Assembly (NCBI GenBank): GCA_947625705.1
Contig: CANQPG010000026.1
Coordinates: 1 to 18,884, forward strand
Origin: an uncultured Peptococcaceae bacterium
GTDB taxonomy: Bacteria; Bacillota; Dehalobacteriia; UBA4068; UBA4997
Direction: 5' to 3'
DNA length: 18,884 nucleotides
The position numbers and the translations under genes are program-made. Below, piece after piece: positions 5,044 through 18,390 of this stretch. A model generated the notes under the pieces. That model was not told the DNA's origin. It was given only the letters and a program-made list of their open reading frames with translations, and did not search any database. The first letter of the stretch is position 1, and every line of letters starts with the position of its first letter.

Positions 5044-5190
5044 TTAGCGGCAGTTGTTGTTGTTCTGCTGGTTGCTCTGCTGATTCGATTTCTGATTGGT
5101 CTGCTGGTTATTCTGCTGGTTGGTCTGCTGATTGCTCTTCTGGTTGGAGTTCTGGTTAGACTGCTGGTTGTTCATACGGTTGTTGTTCAT
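5044..5190 (-). CDS. 48-aa Asn/Gln-repeat micro-protein (not in the supplied ORF track because it is under 60 aa)
   Basis: Hand translation of the minus strand gives MNNNRMNNQQSNQNSNQKSNQQTNQQNNQQTNQKSNQQSNQQNNNNCR*. RBS AAAGGGGTGA ends about 7 nt before the ATG (5190). TAA at 5046-5044. The 4945-4981 hairpin follows downstream. Confidence 0.55.
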   Translation of the reverse strand: MNNNRMNNQQSNQNSNQKSNQQTNQQNNQQTNQKSNQQSNQQNNNNCR

Positions 5191-5440
5191 TTTGGTTTCA
5201 CCCCTTTATATGATTATTTCGCAACCACAGTCCTATTATGTCTTCTCCGCCGCCGCATTATGTATGCCGAAGCGAGGATTTTGCGCCAAAATCTGCCGGA
5301 ATATTCCCCGCCTGCCGGCGCATAATAAGCAGCGGAAGTCCGCAGATGACAAAAGGGCAAGGCCGGGTAAAAAGCGTATGCGTGCCGTCAGTCCTCTATT
5401 GTCAGCGGACTTCTGCTTTTTTATTTTAGGAGGTTTTAAT

Positions 5441-6040
5441 ATGAAGCTTTTAATTGCCAGCGGCAACCGCCACAAGGTGGCCGAGATCGCCAAGCTTTTG
5501 CAGAGGACAAGCTGGGAGGTCTGTTCTTTGAGCGATTTCCCTGATGTGGAACTGCCGCCGGAGGACGCGCCGGATTTTGCCGGCAACGCCCGTATCAAAG
5601 CCGCCTATGCTGCTCATGTCACCGGGCTTTGGACGCTGGCGGACGATTCGGGTCTTGCCGTGGATTATCTGGACGGCGCCCCCGGTGTGCGCAGCGCCCG
5701 TTATGCCGGCGAGCAGAAAGACGATAACGCCAACAACCAAAAGCTGCTGCAGGCTTTGCGGGACTGCCCCAAGGATAAGCGCACCGCTCGCTTTATCTGC
5801 GCGCTTTCGCTGGTATCGCCCACGGGTGAAGAGTTTACCGCCCAAGGCGTCTGCGAGGGGACGATCGGTTACGCGGAGCGGGGCGAGCTGGGCTTTGGCT
5901 ATGACCCGCTGTTCATCATGGCGGACGGCTTACATACCATGGCGGAGCTGGATATGGCGGCCAAAAATCAGGTCAGCCACCGGGCGCGGGCGCTGGCGGC
6001 GCTGCTGCCGACGCTCTTGGAAATTGCCAAAGGTGAATGA
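5441..6040 (+). CDS. rdgB: Non-canonical purine NTP pyrophosphatase (RdgB/HAM1 family)
   Basis: Start chosen at ATG 5441 (RBS TAGGAGG 7 nt upstream) rather than the track start at 5132. Family strings present: MKLLIASGNRHKVAEI, ADDSGLAVDYLDGAPGVRSARY, RTARFICAL, GFGYDPLF, KNQVSHRARA. Confidence 0.9.
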   Translation: MKLLIASGNRHKVAEIAKLLQRTSWEVCSLSDFPDVELPPEDAPDFAGNARIKAAYAAHVTGLWTLADDSGLAVDYLDGAPGVRSARYAGEQKDDNANNQKLLQALRDCPKDKRTARFICALSLVSPTGEEFTAQGVCEGTIGYAERGELGFGYDPLFIMADGLHTMAELDMAAKNQVSHRARALAALLPTLLEIAKGE

Positions 6041-6041
6041 T

Positions 6042-6079
6042 ATAAAGAAAAACACCTTATTTAAGGTGTTTTTCTTTAT
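6042..6079. terminator. Hairpin terminator immediately after rdgB; also the likely left junction of the integrated element
   Basis: Perfect 18-nt inverted repeat ATAAAGAAAAACACCTTA (6042-6059) / TAAGGTGTTTTTCTTTAT (6062-6079). The right arm is T-rich. The recombinase stop codon (6078-6076, minus) lies inside the right arm. Confidence 0.75.
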
Positions 6080-7590
6080 GGCGCACCCAATGGCGCAAAA
6101 TCCGAACATATCATTGAGCCGCTTTCGGCGACCTTTTCGGCTTCGGGCAGACTGATTTTTTTACTGTGGCCGTTAAAGTTAAGCTGCAGCAGAAGCTTGC
6201 CGTCATCATACACATAGACTGCCTGCAAGAATGTTTCGACTATGTATATTCGCCATGACACGTCGCTGTAATCCGCGGTGCGGAAACGCTGCAGGAACCA
6301 GATCACAGTATCGCGGGATATGCTGACGTTTTCCAAGCGTTCTTTGGTTATACCTTTTTCCAGCGCCGCCCGCTCGGCTTCCAGCTCCATTATGTGGCTT
6401 TTCAGGCTATCGGTCACAAAGCCGCTGTCGATAAGCGCCATGGAGTTTTTGATAGCAGATTGGGTTTGCTTCAGACGTTTTTCCAGCGCGGTGGCGTGGC
6501 TGCTGGCGGACTGTTCTGCCTGCCATGCCATAAAGGTGTCGGCTATGCCGTTGATCAGGCCGTCGTCTTGAATAATATCGACCAATGCTTTAATAACTGC
6601 GTCCTCAATGAGCTGCTTGGATATGCTCTGACGGGCGCATTTCTTTTTGCGGCGGCCATTGCAGGTGTAATAATGGTAAATTGCGCCGCTTTTGCCGGTG
6701 CCGCTGTCGCCGGTCATCGCCTCGCCGCACTCGCCGCAGAATATTTTGGTCGTCAGCAGGAAACCGCCCTCGGTTTTCTTGGCCGCCGGCGCTTCGTGGT
6801 GTTTTTTCAGCATGGCTTGCACCTTGTTAAAAAGTTCTTTGGTCACGATTGGGGTTATGGCGTTTTCGTCGTAAATATCATCATAGCGGTAGACGCCGAT
6901 GTACTTCTCGTTTTGCAGAATACGCCGCAGGGAATTCTTGTTAAAGAGGTTTCCCCTGACGGTGCGATACCCCTCGTTGTTGAGATCGGTGTAAATATCA
7001 ACAGCGGGGCGGCCGGCGGCGTATTCCTCGAAAATGCGGCGCACGATCGGCGCGGTGGCCGGATCCGGCTCGTAACGCTTTTCAGCGTTTTGCCGCAGAC
7101 CGAAAACCATGCGCCCCAGCGTTTGCCGCTTTAAGGCGCTGTCATAATTGCCGCGCTTGACGTTTTGGGAGAGGTTGGCGGAGTAGTATTCGGCAAAGCC
7201 CTCCATGACGCTTTCCAATATAATACCCTCCGGGCCGTCCGGGATAAGCTCTTTGGCATAAAGCACCTGAACGCCGTTTTGCTTCAGCTTGTATTTGTAA
7301 ACGGCGCTGTCGTAGCGGGAGCGTGCGAAGCGGTCATTCTTCCAGCAGAGTACCACCGAGAATTGGCCTTTGGCGCTGTCGCGGATCATGCGCTGAAATT
7401 CCGGGCGTTTATCTGACGTGCCGGAAAGGGCGCGGTCACAGTATTCACCCACAACGGTAAGGCCGTGCTTTTTGGCAAATTCGTGGCAATCGCGGAGCTG
7501 CCCCTCTATGCTTTCTTCTCGCTGGCCGTTATAGGAATAGCGGGCATATATAACTGCGAAAAGGGTTGTATCAGAAATGATATTGTTCAT
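6076..7590 (-). CDS. Large serine recombinase (phage integrase type)
   Basis: 504 aa. N-terminal resolvase catalytic domain (AVIYARYSYNGQREESIEGQ with the nucleophile Ser context, then WKNDRFARS). Recombinase domain, Zn-ribbon CGECGE...YHYYTCNGRRKKKC, and a coiled-coil-like C-terminal region. Confidence 0.9.
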   Translation of the reverse strand: MNNIISDTTLFAVIYARYSYNGQREESIEGQLRDCHEFAKKHGLTVVGEYCDRALSGTSDKRPEFQRMIRDSAKGQFSVVLCWKNDRFARSRYDSAVYKYKLKQNGVQVLYAKELIPDGPEGIILESVMEGFAEYYSANLSQNVKRGNYDSALKRQTLGRMVFGLRQNAEKRYEPDPATAPIVRRIFEEYAAGRPAVDIYTDLNNEGYRTVRGNLFNKNSLRRILQNEKYIGVYRYDDIYDENAITPIVTKELFNKVQAMLKKHHEAPAAKKTEGGFLLTTKIFCGECGEAMTGDSGTGKSGAIYHYYTCNGRRKKKCARQSISKQLIEDAVIKALVDIIQDDGLINGIADTFMAWQAEQSASSHATALEKRLKQTQSAIKNSMALIDSGFVTDSLKSHIMELEAERAALEKGITKERLENVSISRDTVIWFLQRFRTADYSDVSWRIYIVETFLQAVYVYDDGKLLLQLNFNGHSKKISLPEAEKVAESGSMICSDFAPLGAP

Positions 7591-7636
7591 AAAAACACCT
7601 GATTTTGCCGCCGGGCTGGCGGCTATTGATACTTTA

Positions 7637-8371
7637 TCAAAAATTACGCTTAATTGCTTCTATGATAGTAACGACAGCGGCAATACAGTTGATTATTGAA
7701 TGAAGCAATAAATACAAGTTAAAGCCATTGATGTAGAAATAAATAGCCGTTCCGACAGTGTTGATTAGGAGAATTGTAATTGCGGTTGCTAATATCCCTA
7801 TGTTAAGACTGGAATTGTTTATGCCAATTTCTTTTGCTGATCCTGCACTAATAGCTGTTATCCAACAAGTTAGAAAAAGAGATAATATATAAAAGAAAAT
7901 ATGATTTACACCGAAAGCAATAGAGTTAATTACACTGCTTAACAAAAGAAAAATGGAAATACCAACCCACCAACTGCATAGATTTGAGTAGATAATAACA
8001 GGTAATGAATAATGACCATAAATGGTTGTACTAAAAATCAAAACAACAAAATAGAGTACGGTGCCTAATATTGATATTCCAATGTATGCTAAAATAAGAT
8101 ATTCAACCAATGAATATGTGTGATTGCTTTCTTTGCTGCTGCCGTTACCTGAGCCGCCGCTGTTTTGCCCAGTTTTATCATCAAAGTTATAAGGACAAAC
8201 ACCATTAGTGTGCAGGTGTGCCGGATAGCCGTGGTGGTAATGATATTCGCCGGTGGATCTGTCATAGTGGCCGCCGTTTTCGTCGGTGCTTCCGCCATGA
8301 GCCAGCGCAACCGTCTGAAAACACAGCAGGCAGCACAGACATAGCAACAAAATGCGGCACGGTGTTTTCAT
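7637..8371 (-). CDS. Signal-peptide protein with a YHYH-type His-rich motif fused to a multi-pass AT-rich membrane domain
   Basis: 244 aa. RBS GGAAAGGA upstream. Signal peptide MKTPCRILLLCLCCLLCFQTVALA. Then HGGSTDENGGHYDRSTGEYHYHHGYPAHLH, a Gly/Ser linker, and about 5-6 hydrophobic helices. Confidence 0.75.
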   Translation of the reverse strand: MKTPCRILLLCLCCLLCFQTVALAHGGSTDENGGHYDRSTGEYHYHHGYPAHLHTNGVCPYNFDDKTGQNSGGSGNGSSKESNHTYSLVEYLILAYIGISILGTVLYFVVLIFSTTIYGHYSLPVIIYSNLCSWWVGISIFLLLSSVINSIAFGVNHIFFYILSLFLTCWITAISAGSAKEIGINNSSLNIGILATAITILLINTVGTAIYFYINGFNLYLLLHSIINCIAAVVTIIEAIKRNF

Positions 8372-8395
8372 TTTGGCTTATCCTTTCCGATACCC

Positions 8396-9058
8396 TTATT
8401 TGCCCACGCAGTCCTTGCAGGGCGCATAGCCCATGTTTTCGGCTGCGGCCTTGGTGATAGCCATGACTTGACGATCCCGTATGTGGTAGCAATCGGCCGT
8501 ATGATAACTCCGACCGCTGGCGGTTATGTAATACTCGCCGGCGATGGGCGCGGCGGTAACCTCCGGGGCGGCAAGCTGATCAGCGGAAGTGTCGTTGAGC
8601 TGCGCTGCCAACACCGGAAATACTGCCAACATTAGAACAAAAGCAAAAATCAGTATATTGCGCCGCAAATGGTTAGGCGGTTTCAAAAGCTTGTCGGCAA
8701 AGTAGGCGGCCTCGGCTTCTTGCTGAACGCAGGCCGCCGGGGAGATGACGTCGGTGGAGATATGCCCCAGCAGGATATGCCCAATTTCATGCGCCAAAAG
8801 GCGGGGCAGCATATCCGGCGGCAGATTTTCCCGCATGAAGATCAGTTTTGTTTGGCCGAGTTGCTGCGAAAAGGCGTCTTTGTGTCTGATATACTCCTTT
8901 AACTCAAGCTGGCGGATAATGGCGTCATTTTCATTGTTAAAAAGAAATATTTGCCAGCCTAAATTGTTGATGTAAGCGCTTAGATTGGTAAAATTTGGCT
9001 GGGAGCCTAACGCTCGGCGGACTTGCCGCGCCATTTTGCTGATTTGCCGTTTGTCCAT
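8396..9058 (-). CDS. ImmA/IrrE-family zinc metalloprotease with a transmembrane helix and a C-terminal Cys/His domain
   Basis: 220 aa. HEIGH in LLAHEIGHILLGH. TM helix ILIFAFVLMLAVFPVLAA preceded by LRRN. C-terminal YHTADCYHIRDRQVMAITKAAAENMGYAPCKDC resembles Ada-type / secreted Zn-binding motifs. Lies directly downstream of the XRE repressor, as in immR-immA pairs. Confidence 0.8.
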   Translation of the reverse strand: MDKRQISKMARQVRRALGSQPNFTNLSAYINNLGWQIFLFNNENDAIIRQLELKEYIRHKDAFSQQLGQTKLIFMRENLPPDMLPRLLAHEIGHILLGHISTDVISPAACVQQEAEAAYFADKLLKPPNHLRRNILIFAFVLMLAVFPVLAAQLNDTSADQLAAPEVTAAPIAGEYYITASGRSYHTADCYHIRDRQVMAITKAAAENMGYAPCKDCVGK

Positions 9059-9132
9059 TGTAAACCCTCCTGAAAGTTGTTTACAACAGATTTCGACAAA
9101 ATGCTACAATATCATTTTTGCGGCAGTATAAG

Positions 9133-9663
9133 TTATTTATCAGTGTTTTTATTTTGGGAGCGTAATTGCTCGTAGAGCTTTTCGGCAGCTGCGATTTGTT
9201 CTGGGGTGGGCGGCGGCATAATGCGGTTATCGCCGCCATAGGCCACAAGCCTGACGCCTTGCTTTTTTGCCTCTTGCTGCTTTTTCAGTGCAGCAAGAGC
9301 TATTTTTTCTTTTTCTGCTTCGGTAAGCGCCGGAGGCTGCTGGGGATTTTCCATAAGCAGCAAGCTATCCAACATATTATCTGCGGCCTTTTGCCCGGTG
9401 GGCGAAAGCTGCAGATATTTTTTTATGCCCTCCGGCAGGGAGGCGTCGGCAAAAATGGCGGTGGGCTGATCAGCACGCCCCAGCAGATAATCCACCGAGC
9501 AGCCGAGGTAGTCAGCTAATTTTATCAGCGTTTCACCATTGGGCAAAGCTCCATCTTTTTTCCATTTGGTTGCAACTGGGGAAGATAAACCGATTGCCTT
9601 AACTACGGGATTGGGTTTTGTATTTTTTTTTATACATAAATCGTAAAATCGCTCCCAGAACAT
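9133..9663 (-). CDS. XRE-family HTH repressor (CI/ImmR-like)
   Basis: 176 aa. N-terminal HTH (KAIGLSSPVATKWKKDGALPNGETLIKLADYLGCSVDYLLGR). No recognisable S24 Ser-Lys peptidase segment in the C-terminal half. Divergent from the early operon. Confidence 0.85.
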   Translation of the reverse strand: MFWERFYDLCIKKNTKPNPVVKAIGLSSPVATKWKKDGALPNGETLIKLADYLGCSVDYLLGRADQPTAIFADASLPEGIKKYLQLSPTGQKAADNMLDSLLLMENPQQPPALTEAEKEKIALAALKKQQEAKKQGVRLVAYGGDNRIMPPPTPEQIAAAEKLYEQLRSQNKNTDK

Positions 9664-13374: not shown

Positions 13375-13394
13375 TATAAGGAGGATTGAAAACT

Positions 13395-14000
13395 ATGAAA
13401 AAACTGACTGTTAAATTGACTTTTATCGAAGAACTGCTGGGTACAAGCCCGGCGAATGAAGATATTTACCGCGATTTTGTGGGCAGCAAAGCACCTGACG
13501 CGGCAACCGTGGAAGATGAAATAGCTGCTGTGGGCGTTGACGGCGTGGTTGAAAAGGGTAAGACCGTTTTCCCGCGCATGGTGGACGGCACGCCGTTTGT
13601 GTATGATTACCAGATCAAGGGCTTTTTCAAAGATACCGCCGGGGCGCTGCGTAAGGTTGAGGGTACAAAATCCAGCAAGATCAAGGCGTTCAAAAAGGAG
13701 ATTGACAAACTGATCTTCCCGGAGCCGCGCTGTATACCGATTGTGTTTGCCGGTGCGACCGGCGAATGTCAACGACCGCTGCGGGCTTCTACACCGCAGG
13801 GTGAGCGCGTTGGTCTTGCTATCAGCGAGGCGATCCCGGCGGGAGCCTCGATTGAATTTTCGGTGATTTGCTTATCTGATAACCACGCTGAAACCGTAAA
13901 AGAATGGCTGGATTATGGTAAATTCAGCGGTTTGGGTCAGTGGCGTAACAGCGGTAAAGGACGTTTTACATGGGAGCTGCTGGCCGAAGAAGACCTCTAA
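13395..14000 (+). CDS. Hypothetical phage protein with a C-terminal GxGx5GxG glycine-rich loop
   Basis: ATG 13395 with AAGGAGGA 9 nt upstream; the track start at 13386 is a TTG. 201 aa. Ends ...KFSGLGQWRNSGKGRFTWELLAEEDL. Confidence 0.7.
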   Translation: MKKLTVKLTFIEELLGTSPANEDIYRDFVGSKAPDAATVEDEIAAVGVDGVVEKGKTVFPRMVDGTPFVYDYQIKGFFKDTAGALRKVEGTKSSKIKAFKKEIDKLIFPEPRCIPIVFAGATGECQRPLRASTPQGERVGLAISEAIPAGASIEFSVICLSDNHAETVKEWLDYGKFSGLGQWRNSGKGRFTWELLAEEDL

Positions 14001-14355
14001 AGCAATGGCGTGGCCTAGCCTTGAAGTGTTTTGCACGGCGAAGCAACGCAACGGCTAAGTGCAGTTTAGTTTTGCAATGGAAACGCCAAGCTTAGCGTAG
14101 CGTGGCAATGGAAGCGCTTAGTTTAGTGCAGCTTAGCGATGGTAAGGCGCCGAATGGTGACGTTTTGCGGGGGCAAGGCGCTGTGTGGTATTTAATGGCA
14201 AAGGAATAGCATTGCAAGGACTGGCGTAGCGTGGCAATGGAACAGCAAGGTGTTGCTGATCTAGGCATTGCATGGCAAAAGGTTTGGCCAGGCGAAGTTT
14301 TGCAGCGAATTGTACGGCCAAGGTAAGGCAAAGCAGCGAGGGGCAGCGATTTGAT
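14001..14355. repeat. Region with stops in the six-frame track, carrying degenerate direct and inverted repeats (GCAATGG core)
   Basis: Exact 19-nt direct repeat GCGTAGCGTGGCAATGGAA at 14095-14113 and 14224-14242. GCAATGG also at 14002 and 14074. The reverse form CATTGC at 14210 and 14266. TAAGTGCAGTTTAGTTTTGCAATGG (14056-14080) resembles TTAGTTTAGTGCAGCTTAGCGATGG (14118-14142). The plus-strand frame I translated by hand hits about nine stops, and the track shows no plus-strand ORF before 14272. Confidence 0.6.
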
Positions 14356-14898
14356 ATGCAGCACTTAGGAGATATAACCAAACTTAACGGCTGGGATATG
14401 CCGCCGGTGGACGTGATCATCGGTGGCAGCCCGTGCCAGGACCTATCGGTGGCAGGAAAGGGCGCAGGGCTGGACGGAGAGCGCAGTGGTTTATTTTTGG
14501 AGCAAATCAGAATTGTTAAGGAGATGAGGGCAGCAGATGAGCAAAGAGGCCGAACAGGTCAGTTTATACGACCTCGGTTTATGGTCTGGGAAAACGTCCC
14601 CGGAGCGTTCTCCAGCCACGGTGGACAAGACTTCCGGCGCGTCCTCGAAGAGGTCATTAGGATCGCGGAGCCGGAAGCCCCCGACGTTCCACTACCTGCA
14701 AAAGGAAAGTGGCCAATGGCTGACTGCTGGTATGGCGATGGCTGGTCCGTTGCCTACCGAGTACACGATGGACAGTTTTGGGGAGTGCCCCAGCGTCGCC
14801 GTCGTATCGCACTTGTCGCAGATTTTGGAGGACACGCCGCACCCGAAATACTGTTTAACCGCCGCCGGGTGTGCGGGGATATTAAAGCGATCTGCTGA
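14356..14898 (+). CDS. Cytosine-5 DNA methyltransferase fragment carrying motifs III, IV, VI and VIII only (catalytic half)
   Basis: MQHLGDITKL (motif III), GGSPCQDLS (motif IV, 14422-14448), FMVWENVPG (motif VI, 14590-14604), GVPQRRRRIALVADF (motif VIII, from 14791). No FxGxG motif I in or upstream of this frame. The start could also be ATG 14272, inside the repeat region. Confidence 0.7.
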   Translation: MQHLGDITKLNGWDMPPVDVIIGGSPCQDLSVAGKGAGLDGERSGLFLEQIRIVKEMRAADEQRGRTGQFIRPRFMVWENVPGAFSSHGGQDFRRVLEEVIRIAEPEAPDVPLPAKGKWPMADCWYGDGWSVAYRVHDGQFWGVPQRRRRIALVADFGGHAAPEILFNRRRVCGDIKAIC

Positions 14899-15886
14899 AC
14901 GCGGCAAGGAAATGCCCTTGGAACTGGAAGCAGTTTTAACATACCAGCGCGATCATTACGATGAGATACTCGCCCTTTTAACGTCAGCATTTGAAAACGC
15001 AGCAGGGTTTAATTTCAAGGCTGGTGCAAAAGCCGGAAGTATCGGGTATGCGCCCGATTGCGCGCCGACATTACAGGCAGAAAGACAAAGCGGCGTGTTG
15101 GTTTATGAAAATCACAGCCAAGACAGCAGATATAGAGGGCCGTTGAATGTAAGCCCTACAATGTCGCGGAAATGGGGAACTGGCGGAAATAATACTCCCA
15201 TTGTTGTCGCGACCGGGCAAGCAAACGCAGAGATAACGGAGGATATGTCTCCAACGCTGAATTGCAACCATGAGCAGCCTATTGTGATTTACGGTATATC
15301 CGCACATAACAGCAAAGCAATGCTATCGGATAATCCGCATAACGGCATTTACCGGGCTGATACCGCACGTACGCTGGACAATAACGGCGGCAATCCGACC
15401 TGCAATCAGGGCGGCATACTGATAATGCAGCCTTATACCACAAGCAAAGTGGCACATACACTGCGACCAAATTCTTGCTACCCTTATCGTCTGGACGCGG
15501 CTACCTATGTTATAGAGCCGTTCGGTTATACGCGCCGCTTTACACCGCTGGAATGTGAGCGCTTACAGGGCTTCCCGGACGGCTGGACGGATATAGGCGA
15601 GTGGACGGACAGCAAAGGGAAACTCCATAAGGCGAGCAGCGATAGTGCAAGGTATCGGGCGCTGGGCAATTCCATAGCCCTGCCGCCGTGGAAGTGGGTG
15701 CTGAAACGCATTTCCGCCTTGTATGAGCGCGACGTCACGATGGGCAGTTTGTTCGATGGTATCGGCGGTTTCCCCTTGATTTGGGAGCAGTTGAATGGCG
15801 CGGGAAGCTGCCTTTGGGCAAGCGAGATTGACGAATTTTGTATCGCCGTGACCAAGCGGCAGTTTGGACGGGAGGTGAGCGAATGA
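14537..15886 (+). CDS. Cytosine-5 DNA methyltransferase fragment carrying TRD, motifs IX and X, then motifs I and II (+1 frame relative to 14356-14898)
   Basis: 449 aa. GAGGG 6 nt before the ATG. LSQILEDTPHPKYCLTAAGCAGILKRSAERGKEMP and NPHNGIYRADTARTLDNNGGNPTCNQGG are TRD-type strings. RRFTPLECERLQGFPDGW is motif IX, ALGNSIALP is motif X. Then MGSLFDGIGGF (motif I, 15749-15772) and WASEID (motif II). The start is uncertain because the first 362 nt overlap the previous ORF. Confidence 0.7.
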   Translation: MSKEAEQVSLYDLGLWSGKTSPERSPATVDKTSGASSKRSLGSRSRKPPTFHYLQKESGQWLTAGMAMAGPLPTEYTMDSFGECPSVAVVSHLSQILEDTPHPKYCLTAAGCAGILKRSAERGKEMPLELEAVLTYQRDHYDEILALLTSAFENAAGFNFKAGAKAGSIGYAPDCAPTLQAERQSGVLVYENHSQDSRYRGPLNVSPTMSRKWGTGGNNTPIVVATGQANAEITEDMSPTLNCNHEQPIVIYGISAHNSKAMLSDNPHNGIYRADTARTLDNNGGNPTCNQGGILIMQPYTTSKVAHTLRPNSCYPYRLDAATYVIEPFGYTRRFTPLECERLQGFPDGWTDIGEWTDSKGKLHKASSDSARYRALGNSIALPPWKWVLKRISALYERDVTMGSLFDGIGGFPLIWEQLNGAGSCLWASEIDEFCIAVTKRQFGREVSE

Positions 15887-18390
15887 GTTTATCGTATAGA
15901 GAATTTCTCCAAACCAAGATGGAGATAGCGCCGGAAAGCGGTTTCGATATTCCGCCGGAAGAAATCAACCCGGCGTTGAAGCCGCATCAGCGGGTAGCCG
16001 TCCAGTGGGCTATAAAGGGCGGCTGCCGGGCGTTGTTTGAGGCTTTTGGTCTTGGCAAGACGGCGCAGCAGCTCGAATGGGCGCGGTTAATCACCAAGCA
16101 CCGGGGCGGCAAGGCGCTGATCGTACTGCCGCTGAATGTTAAACGGGAGTTTCAGAACGACGCTGTGAAGCTGCTGGGGCTTGACGAGCCGGTTTATGTG
16201 CGTAATATGGCCGAGGTCAAAGCGGCTGCCGGTAATATTCTGCTGACCAATTATGAGCGGGTGCGCGACGGAGATATTCAGCCGGAATACTTCACCGCTG
16301 CCAGCTTGGACGAGGCTTTGGTTTTGCGGGATTTCGGCAGCAAAACATACCAGACCTTTTTGCAGAAGTTCAGGCAGGTAAGGTATAAACTGCTGGCCAC
16401 GGCCACGCCGGCGCCAAATCGGTATAAAGAGCTGATCCATTACGCCGGATATTTGGGCGTTATGGATACCGGACAGGCGCTGACGCGCTTCTTCCAGCGG
16501 GACAGCACCAAGGCGAACAATTTGACGCTTTACCCGCACAAGCAGATGGAGTTCTGGCTGTGGGTGAGCAGCTGGGCTTTGTTTATAACGAAACCCTCGG
16601 ATCTGGGGTTTGATGATGAGGGCTATGCGCTGCCGCCGCTCAAGGTAAATTACCACCGTGTGGCCGTCGACCAAAGCACGGCCGGTTTTGAAAAGGACGG
16701 GCAGGCCAGACTGTTCCGTTCAGCTGCTTTATCCTTGCAGGACGAGGCTAAGGAAAAGCGCGACAGCATAGCGGCCAGAGTGGCAAAAATGGTTGAGATC
16801 GTCAATGCTGACCCCGGCGAGCATTTTATTCTGTGGCATGATTTGGAAGCCGAGCCCCACGCGATTAAAAATGCGCTGCCGGAAACCGTGGATATTTACG
16901 GCAGTATGGATATTGAAACCCGCGAAAAGCGGGTCAGTGATTTTGCCAACGGCAGGTGCCGGCTGTTCGCCACCAAGAAGTCTTTATCCGGCAGCGGCTG
17001 CAATTTACAGCGCCATTGTCACCGTGCGATATTCTTGGGCATAGATTACGAGTTTAACGATTTCATTCAGGCCATACACCGCATTTACCGCTTTTTGCAA
17101 AAAGACGAGGTCATTATCGACGTGATCTACACCGAGTCTGAGGATATGATCTTGGAGGCTCTGCAAAAGAAGTGGCGGCAGTTTGATGAAATGACCGAAC
17201 AGATGGTGGCTATAGTTAAAAAATACGGTCTGTCCGGCCAGCATATTCAAGAGAGTTTAGGCCGCAAAATGGGGGTGGAAAGAACGGAGGTTAAGGGAAC
17301 ATATTTTACCGCTATTCATAATGATTGCGTGCAGGAATGTGCCAATATGGCAGATAACAGCGTCGGTCTGATACATACCTCGATACCGTTTGGCAATCAT
17401 TACGAATACTCGGCCAATTATAACGATTTCGGTCATAACGAAAACACGGAGCGGTTTTTCGAGCAGATGGACTATCTGACGCCGGAGCTGCTGCGGATCT
17501 TGCAGCCGGGGCGTGTGTTCGCCTGCCACGTTAAAGACCGTGTGCTGTTCGGCAACGCTACCGGCACGGGTATGCCGACGATCGAGCCGTTCCACGCGCT
17601 GTGCATTGAGCATTACACGAAGCACGGCTTCATGTATTTTGGCATGATAACCGTCGTGACCGATGTCGTGCGTGAGAATAACCAGACATACCGGCTGGGG
17701 TGGTCTGAACAATGCAAGGACGGCAGCAAGATGGGGGTTGGCTGCCCGGAATATATCCTGCTGTTCCGCAAACTGCCCACCGATACCAGCCGAGCCTATG
17801 CCGACGATCCTGTTACCAAGAGCAAGCAGGACTATACGCGGGCACAATGGCAAATTGACGCGCACGGCTATTACCGTTCCTCCGGCGATCGCCTGATCAG
17901 CAAAAAGGAATTGGAGAGCGTGCCGGTGGACAGGCTGCAGGCCGTTTACCGGGAATACAGCCGCCATAACGTATACAGCTATGCCGAACACGTGGCGTTA
18001 GCCAAGAAGCTGGACGTTGAGGGGAAACTCCCCGCCAGTTTTATGGTGGTGGCTCCCGGCTCATGGAGTGATGAGGTTTGGGACGATATAAACCGTATGC
18101 GGACGCTTAACACCAACCAGAGCAAGCGACGCCAGCAGCTGCACGTCTGCCCGCTTCAGCTGGATATTGTCGAGCGGATAATTAACCGCTATTCCAACCA
18201 GGGTGACGTGGTATTCGACCCGTTTGCCGGGTTGTTCACCGTGCCGTATATGGCCGTAAAGATGGGGCGCATTGGCGTGGGCGTGGAGCTTAATCTGGAT
18301 TATTTCCGGGACGGCGTCGGTTATTTACAGGCTGCCGAGGCGAAGATCAGTGAGCCGACGCTGTTTGATTTTTTGGATATTGCCAATTAA
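15883..18390 (+). CDS. SNF2/SF2 helicase fused to a C-terminal amino (N6-A/N4-C) DNA methyltransferase domain
   Basis: ATG 15883 (RBS GGAGGTGA) overlaps the previous TGA as ATGA. Helicase motifs: LKPHQ, GLGKT (16048-16062), DEAL (16309-16320), ATATP, QAIHRIYR. MTase domain of beta-class order: HTSIPFG (17380-17391 = SIPF) upstream of HVCPLQLDIVERII...VVFDPFAGLFTV (18214-18240). Confidence 0.85.
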   Translation: MSLSYREFLQTKMEIAPESGFDIPPEEINPALKPHQRVAVQWAIKGGCRALFEAFGLGKTAQQLEWARLITKHRGGKALIVLPLNVKREFQNDAVKLLGLDEPVYVRNMAEVKAAAGNILLTNYERVRDGDIQPEYFTAASLDEALVLRDFGSKTYQTFLQKFRQVRYKLLATATPAPNRYKELIHYAGYLGVMDTGQALTRFFQRDSTKANNLTLYPHKQMEFWLWVSSWALFITKPSDLGFDDEGYALPPLKVNYHRVAVDQSTAGFEKDGQARLFRSAALSLQDEAKEKRDSIAARVAKMVEIVNADPGEHFILWHDLEAEPHAIKNALPETVDIYGSMDIETREKRVSDFANGRCRLFATKKSLSGSGCNLQRHCHRAIFLGIDYEFNDFIQAIHRIYRFLQKDEVIIDVIYTESEDMILEALQKKWRQFDEMTEQMVAIVKKYGLSGQHIQESLGRKMGVERTEVKGTYFTAIHNDCVQECANMADNSVGLIHTSIPFGNHYEYSANYNDFGHNENTERFFEQMDYLTPELLRILQPGRVFACHVKDRVLFGNATGTGMPTIEPFHALCIEHYTKHGFMYFGMITVVTDVVRENNQTYRLGWSEQCKDGSKMGVGCPEYILLFRKLPTDTSRAYADDPVTKSKQDYTRAQWQIDAHGYYRSSGDRLISKKELESVPVDRLQAVYREYSRHNVYSYAEHVALAKKLDVEGKLPASFMVVAPGSWSDEVWDDINRMRTLNTNQSKRRQQLHVCPLQLDIVERIINRYSNQGDVVFDPFAGLFTVPYMAVKMGRIGVGVELNLDYFRDGVGYLQAAEAKISEPTLFDFLDIAN

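Follow-up and report, generated by a model that had tools for sequence, protein, structure and literature searches.

The window analysed here is a stretch of 18,884 nucleotides (nt) from an uncultured Peptococcaceae bacterium (contig CANQPG010000026.1), in which two overlapping open reading frames (ORFs) at 14356–15886 on the plus strand divide between them the conserved motifs of a cytosine-5 (C5) DNA methyltransferase. On the strength of the sequence comparisons below, we think it likely that this locus encodes a genuine C5 DNA methyltransferase with a circularly permuted fold, made as two polypeptides, and that it also carries an older embedded reading frame, here called ORF X. An original prediction, made from the letters of the window alone, had already proposed the permutation. 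The observation is confirmed and its interpretation supported: the window holds a natural variant of the permuted, split and overlapping-frame C5 methyltransferases, and the embedded gene is a well-supported addition that had not been anticipated.

ORF A (14356–14898, frame 1, stop codon 14896–14898) encodes 180 amino acids (aa), and ORF B (14537–15886, frame 2, stop codon 15884–15886) encodes 449 aa. Translation of ORF A places motif III, MQHLGDITKL, at its very start (14356–14385), followed by motif IV with the catalytic cysteine (GGSPCQDLS, 14422–14448), the ENV motif VI (WENVPG, 14587–14604) and the QRRRR motif VIII (QRRRRIALVADF, 14791–14826). ORF B contains a variable target-recognition domain (TRD) region (15002–15532), whose modules match phrog_38038 and phrog_116, and then motif IX (RRFTPLECERLQGFPDGW, 15533–15586) and motif X (ALGNSIALP, 15659–15685), both located by translation and by matches to PF00145 and M.HhaI. 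An 18-aa linker, PWKWVLKRISALYERDVT (15686–15739), joins what would be the old C-terminus after motif X to the old N-terminus before motif I. The relocated motifs I (MGSLFDGIGGF, 15740–15772) and II (WASEIDEFCIAVTKRQF, containing WASEID, 15815–15865) follow, both identified in alignments with M.HhaI, phrog_363 and the enzyme of phage Javan105, and the frame stops soon after. The order is thus III-IV-VI-VIII in ORF A and TRD-IX-X-I-II in ORF B, rather than a canonical single chain running from I to X. The full C5 motif set is intact over the two ORFs, namely FxGxG (I), the acidic residue of II, GDI (III), PCQ (IV), ENV (VI), QxRxR (VIII), RxxTxxExxRLQGFP (IX) and GNS (X), and the junction '..YER.ATMGSLFDGIGGF' is kept throughout the permuted family. 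Every motif string quoted in the original prediction was found in the translation at the position given for it; motif I had been placed about 20 aa past motif X in the frame of ORF B, and the frame is right, with a measured spacing of 18 aa.

A circular permutation with its break between motifs II and III implies that profile coordinates should wrap around the two ORFs, and they do. ORF A residues 3–100 aligned with PF00145 positions 46–130 (78.2 bits) and ORF B residues 318–392 with positions 269–322 (45.8 bits), both above the cut-off of 22. A canonical profile from phages, phrog_363, behaved in the same way, with ORF A 3–170 matching positions 100–228 and ORF B 397–443 matching positions 51–95, and ORF B also matched phrog_16427, a single PHROG family that covers IX-X-I-II without a break. 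In M.HhaI, residues 16–55 correspond to ORF B 404–445 and residues 254–290 to ORF B 315–351. Against TIGR00675 the halves scored 80.3 (A) and 42.5 (B), each under its cut-off of 100.65, and a single-chain relative, P0082, scored 121.9. The canonical enzyme of the Streptococcus phage Javan105 maps with residues 48–106 on 14353–14529 in frame 1 and residues 3–45 on 15728–15862 in frame 2, leaving just two canonical residues unaccounted for and none duplicated, and '...WASEIEAFPIEVTRKRFPSILHVGDITKL...' is one unbroken string in non-permuted relatives such as Anaerotruncus colihominis. The last two results bear out the proposal that the end of ORF B and the start of ORF A are complementary halves of one II-III linker.

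No second copy of motifs I/II was found elsewhere in the window, in agreement with the earlier statement that none precedes ORF A. Nor is 15749–15886 a non-conserved remnant of another gene copy, because this closing I-II stretch is conserved and evolves under purifying selection. We conclude from these alignments that the putative prophage enzyme has the topology of a class B permutant, with its termini between motifs II and III and its old C-terminus linked to its old N-terminus. Such a permutation may have come about by tandem duplication followed by truncation. We looked in the permuted loci for duplication intermediates, in the form of I/II remnants upstream of motif III, and found none in any of them; the homologs thus give no sign of the normal upstream I/II segment that would have counted against the permuted order.

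To see how widely this order occurs, we searched for homologs with the C-terminal 362 residues of ORF B, which gave at least 8,000 candidates, and inspected the best 120. Nearly all of these share the permuted order: they start with M-x-H-L-G-D-I-T, carry PCQ near residue 25, ENV near residue 78 and QRRRR near residue 144, and finish about 40 residues after a C-terminal FDGIGGF. Where NCBI gives a label it is 'DNA cytosine methyltransferase', as for WP_243150019.1 from Acutalibacter. In IMG/VR, 394 contigs encode relatives of ORF A, and a GTDB scan, in which each species was represented by one genome, found IX-X-I-II contiguous in at least 31 loci, mostly from gut Clostridia (Oscillospiraceae, Dysosmobacter, Acutalibacter, Faecalibacterium, Lachnospiraceae, Christensenella and others), so the motif order of the window recurs on hundreds of independent contigs as well as in nearly all top homologs. 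Nucleotide searches with the locus recovered almost nothing: a single stretch of 74% identity among phage records, and none on plasmids.

Most members of the permuted family are made as one chain. These include P0082, encoded on locus L089, the nearest relative of ORF A, which it matches at 97% identity in the conserved portion. The permuted enzyme of the isolate Intestinibacillus massiliensis Marseille-P3216T (L119) is likewise a single chain. The architecture of ORF B recurs in P0002 (77% identity), and the two-ORF arrangement of the window is present in the diverged loci L001, L002, L004 and L005. The original prediction had the permutation right, and left unremarked both that the family is mostly single-chain and that ORFs A and B overlap out of frame.

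The original prediction held permuted or split C5 enzymes to be rare, and a published survey agrees. Albert, Varga, Zsibrita and Kiss (2018) scanned 20,677 REBASE entries for motif X before motif I and reported 27 natural permutants, all permuted in the variable region, like M.BssHII (PMC5944983). Among their engineered enzymes, cp62M.MpeI and cp58M.SssI, which start between motifs II and III, far exceeded the other permutants in activity, and the fragments Mpe[62-279] and Mpe[280-61], equivalent to III-VIII and TRD-IX-X-I-II, together gave active enzyme in vivo (PMC5944983). The topology of cp62M.MpeI and cp58M.SssI, with a new N-terminus at II/III and motif X joined to motif I, is identical to that of the window, but these were made in the laboratory from CG-specific enzymes of mycoplasma and spiroplasma, whereas the window is natural, belongs to another clade and has the extra ORF X and overlapping genes. 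Our full-text searches turned up no later description of a natural II/III permutant, and we found neither this permutation type nor the 362-nt overlap in a published description.

Other known systems resemble the window in single respects. The natural permutants M.BssHII, M.Alw26I, M2.Eco31I, M.Esp3I and M2.BsaI also have motif X before motif I, but the M.BssHII type is broken in the variable region (IX-X, then I-VIII), whereas the break in the window is at II/III and the N-terminus at motif III. M.AquI is a natural two-subunit enzyme split at the same position, between VIII and the TRD; its alpha subunit holds I-VIII, however, and in the window motifs I-II sit on the TRD-bearing chain, so the locus is not of the AquI type. 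In M.EcoHK31I a different frame within the alpha gene encodes the beta polypeptide, an overlap of frames that the window shares; in single-chain relatives of the window, the ORF X frame is nested completely. The beta polypeptide carries motif IX, whereas ORF X has no recognisable methyltransferase motif and motif IX of the window lies in the non-overlapping part of ORF B; moreover, ORF X spans about 145 codons, is conserved across thousands of clusters and, where the gene is split, runs on into the TRD-IX-X(-I-II) half. Plant DRM2 (domains-rearranged methyltransferase), a weak PDB sequence hit, likewise has a rearranged C5 motif order. The DRM enzymes place motifs VI–X before I–V; DRM2 has a different break point, is eukaryotic and is not split. 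Closest in kind are canonical-order relatives such as the Javan105 enzyme (QBX13763.1; L088, MK448667.1 28484–30001) and that of A. colihominis DSM 17241 (L137), which have about 50% identity in III-VIII, the signature 'ADFGG..APEILF', an embedded +1 ORF X, and both split and single-chain forms. Unlike the window, these canonical-order members of the clade keep motifs I-II at the N-terminus.

ORF B starts well inside ORF A, and its first ~145 codons make up ORF X, a conserved frame in the +1 register relative to ORF A. Over the 362-nt dual-coding overlap (14537–14898), frame A runs from motif VI to motif VIII and on through 'ADFGG..APEILF', and the +1 frame encodes the N-terminal part of ORF X and ORF B, such that ORF A 'FMVWENVPGAFSS...WGVPQRRRRIALVADFGGHAAPEILF' reads in +1 as ORF B 'SLYDLGLWSGKTSPERS...GECPSVAVVSHLSQILEDTPHPKY'. 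At nearly all loci, including those encoding a single chain, the +1 frame is open from ORF A codon ~57 to ~200–236, and the +2 frame for only about 30 codons. We measured stop density in 41 distinct single-chain genes. In +1, stops numbered 0.080 per codon upstream of codon 57, fell to 0.0005 across codons 58–199 and rose to 0.037 beyond, a depletion of about 70- to 160-fold in the ORF X frame relative to its flanks, and +2 showed no comparable stop-free gap.

Codon choice in ORF A tells a similar story. Across 31 representatives with less than 85% nucleotide identity, synonymous diversity was 0.72 in ORF A codons 0–57, 0.59 in codons 60–140 and 0.33 in codons 140–175. At I-A-L-V-A-D-F-G (ORF A codons 150–157) the codons are nearly fixed (ATC, CTT, GTC, GCA, GAT, TTT, GGA), which is the choice required if S-L-S-Q-I-L-E is to persist in the +1 frame. 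In the comparison of the window with L090, dS (the rate of synonymous change) was 1.09 in ORF A codons 1–57 and 0.18 in the overlap, a roughly sixfold suppression. Among 14 single-chain representatives, ORF X residues 111–130 had an identity of 0.58–0.65 in the X frame versus 0.26–0.28 in the A frame, and residues 11–40 gave the opposite pattern, with the A frame more conserved. Taken together, these comparisons argue that the ORF X frame is a case of functional same-strand dual coding.

ORF X also appears to have its own translation signals. In the window, a Shine-Dalgarno (SD) sequence, AAGGAG, precedes the ATG at 14537 (14518–14539). An SD-like sequence 5–14 nt upstream of the start was present in 30 of the 31 representatives; it is formed by the Lys-Glu codons of 'KEMR' in ORF A, where the ORF A residues are variable. 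We therefore predict a separate ribosome-binding site and start for ORF X. The frame has been called as a stand-alone hypothetical protein of 140–155 aa in more than 200 clusters, and an ORF X profile matched 4,579 representative clusters at E<=1e-3, nearly always at residues 1–145 of proteins of 140–730 aa. Conservation in the alignment reaches 0.8–0.9 in the core (GECPSVAVVSHLSQILEDTPHPKY..AGCAGILKRSAERGKEMPLELEAVL.., 14780–15001), which is predicted to be helical: AlphaFold2 gave confident helices for ORF X residues ~100–155, with a predicted local distance difference test (pLDDT) score of 82–92 for ORF X alone and 86–97 for residues 101–150 of ORF B.

Could the two-subunit enzyme be real and ORF B nevertheless start further in, at an internal methionine such as the ATG at 14768 (MDSFGEC..), with most of the overlap non-functional and the +1 similarity a by-product of ORF A? 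Gene callers did pick later starts in some relatives, P0075 and P0081 among them, and in two of the 41 single-chain genes (L027 and L061) +1 is open only from codon 98 or 76. The early part of the overlap is also where constraint on ORF A codons is mild (the 0.59 versus 0.72 above) and where AlphaFold2 leaves ORF X disordered. A late start would not, however, account for the 38 genes out of 41 whose +1 frame is open from codon ~57 on, where synonymous-codon shuffling expects 1.3–5 stops in the stretch, for a start codon at +1-frame codon 57–63 in 31 of 31 representatives although the ORF A residues there vary, or for single codons fixed within the overlap (Asn-87 as AAC in 27/27, Pro-113 as CCT in 26/27). 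We consider a late start unlikely and favor initiation of ORF B at 14537.

Several results nonetheless weigh against a functional ORF X and against the structure we ascribe to ORF B. Given the protein sequence of ORF A, zero +1 stops occurred in 0–25% of shuffles per gene; a single genome is therefore weak evidence, and the argument rests on many diverged lineages. ORF X residues 1–90 were modelled as disordered (pLDDT below 57 for residues 1–80), and constraint at residues 1–80 is only mildly raised. The AlphaFold2 model of ORF B alone was poor outside the ORF X helices, with a mean pLDDT of 49.6. ORF X had no match in Pfam, PHROG, NCBIfam, PDB sequences or Foldseek (the ORF X model found nothing in the PDB below E=5.9), which makes any role for it a guess. 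Two apparent leads were dropped. A winged-helix match of ORF B 46–117 to WalR (phmmer, E=0.003), which hinted at a DNA-binding fold, was set aside as chance after it disappeared with a 62-sequence ORF X profile, which had no PDB hit at E<=10, and a supposed likeness of 'LSQILE..KY.LS' to the canonical segment after motif VIII found no support in profile or structure searches.

ORF X is not confined to permuted enzymes; it occurs in all parts of this methyltransferase clade. The canonical Javan105 gene, which has low GC content and is about 51% identical in III-VIII, contains it ('...ESILSQILMEKVPEKYYLSPRACLGILKRANARGKELPEILRLALERG'). Among canonical-order Clostridial genes, ORF X is nested in a single-chain gene at L137, L140, L149, L159, L168 and L169 and fused before TRD-IX-X in a split gene at L124, L126, L127, L142, L145, L155 and L165. 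This makes the overlap both more ancient and more widespread than the permutation, and these comparisons indicate that ORF X predates it. Since ORF X is fused to the TRD half in split genes, a 'Rosetta stone' argument suggests that it is most likely an accessory or assembly module of the methyltransferase. We also observed that L106, P0238 and P0044 tolerate an 18-nt insertion in the motif VIII region in both frames; the reading is 'WGTSDKPLPQRRRR' in the A frame and 'GEHPISLYHNGVGESHLSQILE' in the ORF X frame. P0044 is apparently one ORF that passes from the A into the ORF X frame and lacks motif VIII.

We then asked whether the two halves are maintained as a pair, using pairwise rates between the window and L090, which is also split and 88% identical in nucleotides, and between the window and the single-chain L089. 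Against L090, the ratio of nonsynonymous to synonymous rates (dN/dS) was 0.05 in ORF A codons 1–57 and again 0.05 in ORF B codons 120–160, the non-overlapping tail of ORF X; it was 0.10 for motifs IX-X, 0.30 for I-II and 0.34 for the TRD, with dS in this comparison at about 0.25–1.1. Against L089, dN/dS was 0.085 across IX-X-I-II. The three sequences align without indels through 14800–14935. The stop codons of ORF A arose by substitution and differ between the window and L090. The TRD region of the window differs from those of its closest relatives, L089 and L090, and the divergence from L089 past ~14935 points to a module exchange that put the TRD in the ORF X frame.

These rates bear on whether the locus is a dead gene, that is, a single-chain permuted enzyme broken by mutation, with the N-terminus of ORF B an accidental open frame. 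Most relatives, including the closest relative of ORF A, are indeed single chains, some split forms differ from single-chain ones by one G in a homopolymer, and +1 stops are rare from the protein sequence of ORF A alone. Yet both halves have been under strong purifying selection since the window and L090 separated, at dS up to about 1, the ORF B continuation of ORF X is as constrained as the start of ORF A, and all catalytic motifs are intact. The split is also retained in L001 and L002, only ~47% identical to the window, and occurs in isolate genomes, both in permuted order (Faecalibacterium tardum CLA-AA-H175, L116) and in canonical order (Brotocaccenecus, Youxingia). In addition, when we classified 86 loci, mostly single-chain, the C-terminal half lay in the +1 frame at 19 and in the +2 frame at 2. 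Decay thus seems quite improbable, and because both ORFs are under purifying selection we conclude that the split methyltransferase is, as judged from substitution patterns, not a pseudogene.

Programmed +1 frameshifting or transcriptional slippage near the end of ORF A could instead yield a full-length enzyme, as ORF B is in the +1 frame of ORF A and a fusion near 14890 would recreate the single-chain order. At or near the end of the overlap, however, homopolymers do not exceed 5 nt and a slippery heptamer is lacking, so that the window offers no support for frameshifting. The synonymous constraint shows that +1 is read well before motif VIII, and an early shift would delete that motif; furthermore, a conserved SD and start belong to ORF X itself, which nearly always sits at the N-terminus of called proteins. 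We regard frameshifting as very unlikely and retain the two-polypeptide reading. That the motif order is an assembly artefact, from collapsed tandem copies or a mis-joined contig, is effectively refuted: although the window comes from a single metagenome-type contig with a repeat-rich spacer directly upstream, the order is found in hundreds of independent assemblies and is therefore not an assembly quirk, it is present in complete or isolate genomes and RefSeq (for example WP_243150019.1), and L089 and L090 are collinear with the window over both junctions.

Comparison of close relatives suggests how one- and two-chain forms may interconvert. The split L171 and the single-chain L172 share 99.3% identity and differ by G6 versus G5 in the linker, and a large IMG/VR group contains split and single-chain members that are told apart by a G7/G8 run. 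Runs of G5–G8 just past ORF X also distinguish L067 from L081, and L084, L062 and L066 from L042, by one or two G; no run of this kind is present in the window. Such differences could reflect slipped-strand switching or homopolymer assembly error, and the placement of some of them in G5–G8 runs, where assembly errors are possible, counts against the two-polypeptide reading. With a start of its own for ORF X, the enzyme would survive a one-base change downstream. We therefore tentatively propose, with some doubt as to the whole, that such a change toggles the enzyme from one chain accompanied by free X to two subunits, with X at the head of the TRD half, and back, possibly in a phase-variable manner in some lineages, and that the window would be a fixed two-subunit case, the first natural II/III permutant with an S-adenosylmethionine (AdoMet) site across two chains.

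How the two polypeptides might work together can be sketched from the known fold. ORF A would supply strands beta3–beta7 of the catalytic domain, with the cysteine of PCQ, ENV and QRRRR. ORF B, translated from its own SD and ATG inside ORF A in the +1 frame, would supply the DNA-recognition domain (TRD and IX), the motif X helix and the beta1–beta2 AdoMet-binding unit (I-II). The beta1–beta2 unit and the motif X helix of B may then complete the Rossmann-like sheet of A. With motifs I-II on the TRD-bearing subunit the cofactor site must form across two chains, and the AdoMet pocket would be completed only in the A·B complex. ORF X would lead ORF B in split genes and be a free ~150-aa product in single-chain genes. 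Assembly of a two-chain heterodimer and its methyltransferase activity are predicted here from sequence.

If correct, this arrangement places cofactor-binding and catalytic motifs on different polypeptides, which has not been reported for natural C5 enzymes, and nature appears to use the permutation topology, with its break at II/III, that engineers found most active. The hundreds of natural sequences offer a resource on rewiring of the C5 fold and for split or targeted methyltransferases. For a long bacterial or phage gene that overlaps another on the same strand, the comparative evidence behind ORF X (thousands of clusters, a conserved start and synonymous constraint) is unusually strong; ORF X is a tractable system for studying overprinting, and the poly-G toggles raise the possibility of a phase-variable architecture, beyond simple ON/OFF switching. 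There is also a consequence for annotation. ORF A, the catalytic half, is absent from a 15-billion-protein public collection, in which only ORF B was called from the contig; elsewhere, too, callers kept ORF B or ORF X and dropped ORF A, so that suppression of overlapping genes hides half of the enzyme. Since callers retain a single ORF where two overlap, loci of this kind are probably recorded, wrongly, as truncated when the methylomes and restriction-modification systems of gut Clostridia and their phages are annotated.

The surroundings of the locus look like one end of a prophage. A probable boundary at 5132–9663 comprises a Ham1-family inosine triphosphatase gene (5132–6040) and, on the minus strand, genes for a serine integrase (6076–7590), an ImmA-like metalloprotease or regulator (8396–9058) and a Cro/CI-type helix-turn-helix repressor (9133–9663). 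Between a 204-aa ORF (13386–14000) and ORF A lies a non-coding spacer of 355 nt (14001–14355) with stops in all six frames. The original prediction called it stop-ridden repeat DNA; stop-ridden it is, and the repeats are weak and degenerate, with ~31-nt spacing and a unit, GCGTAGCGTGGCAATGGAA, that is present twice as an exact copy, and Tandem Repeats Finder reports none. Scans of 14001–14355 with Rfam and for tRNA genes, promoters and terminators gave nothing that explains the spacer, and the repeat unit had no exact match in viral contigs. The spacer is absent from L089 and L090, where ORF A follows the preceding gene after 3 and 87 nt. The 204-aa ORF matches no Pfam or PHROG family and is missing from L090, which has a homolog of the 13120–13374 gene upstream of ORF A and no counterpart of 13386–14355 between them.

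Immediately downstream, an 835-aa SNF2-type helicase/N6/N4 DNA methyltransferase fusion gene (15883–18390, plus strand; Pfam SNF2-rel_dom, Helicase_C and N6_N4_Mtase; phrog_16) begins with an ATG that overlaps the ORF B stop (ATGA), an operon context and not part of the C5 enzyme. The fusion has weak similarity to DrmD of DISARM, and the same pairing occurs in L089. L002 carries a comparable gene of 830 aa, which there precedes the methyltransferase.

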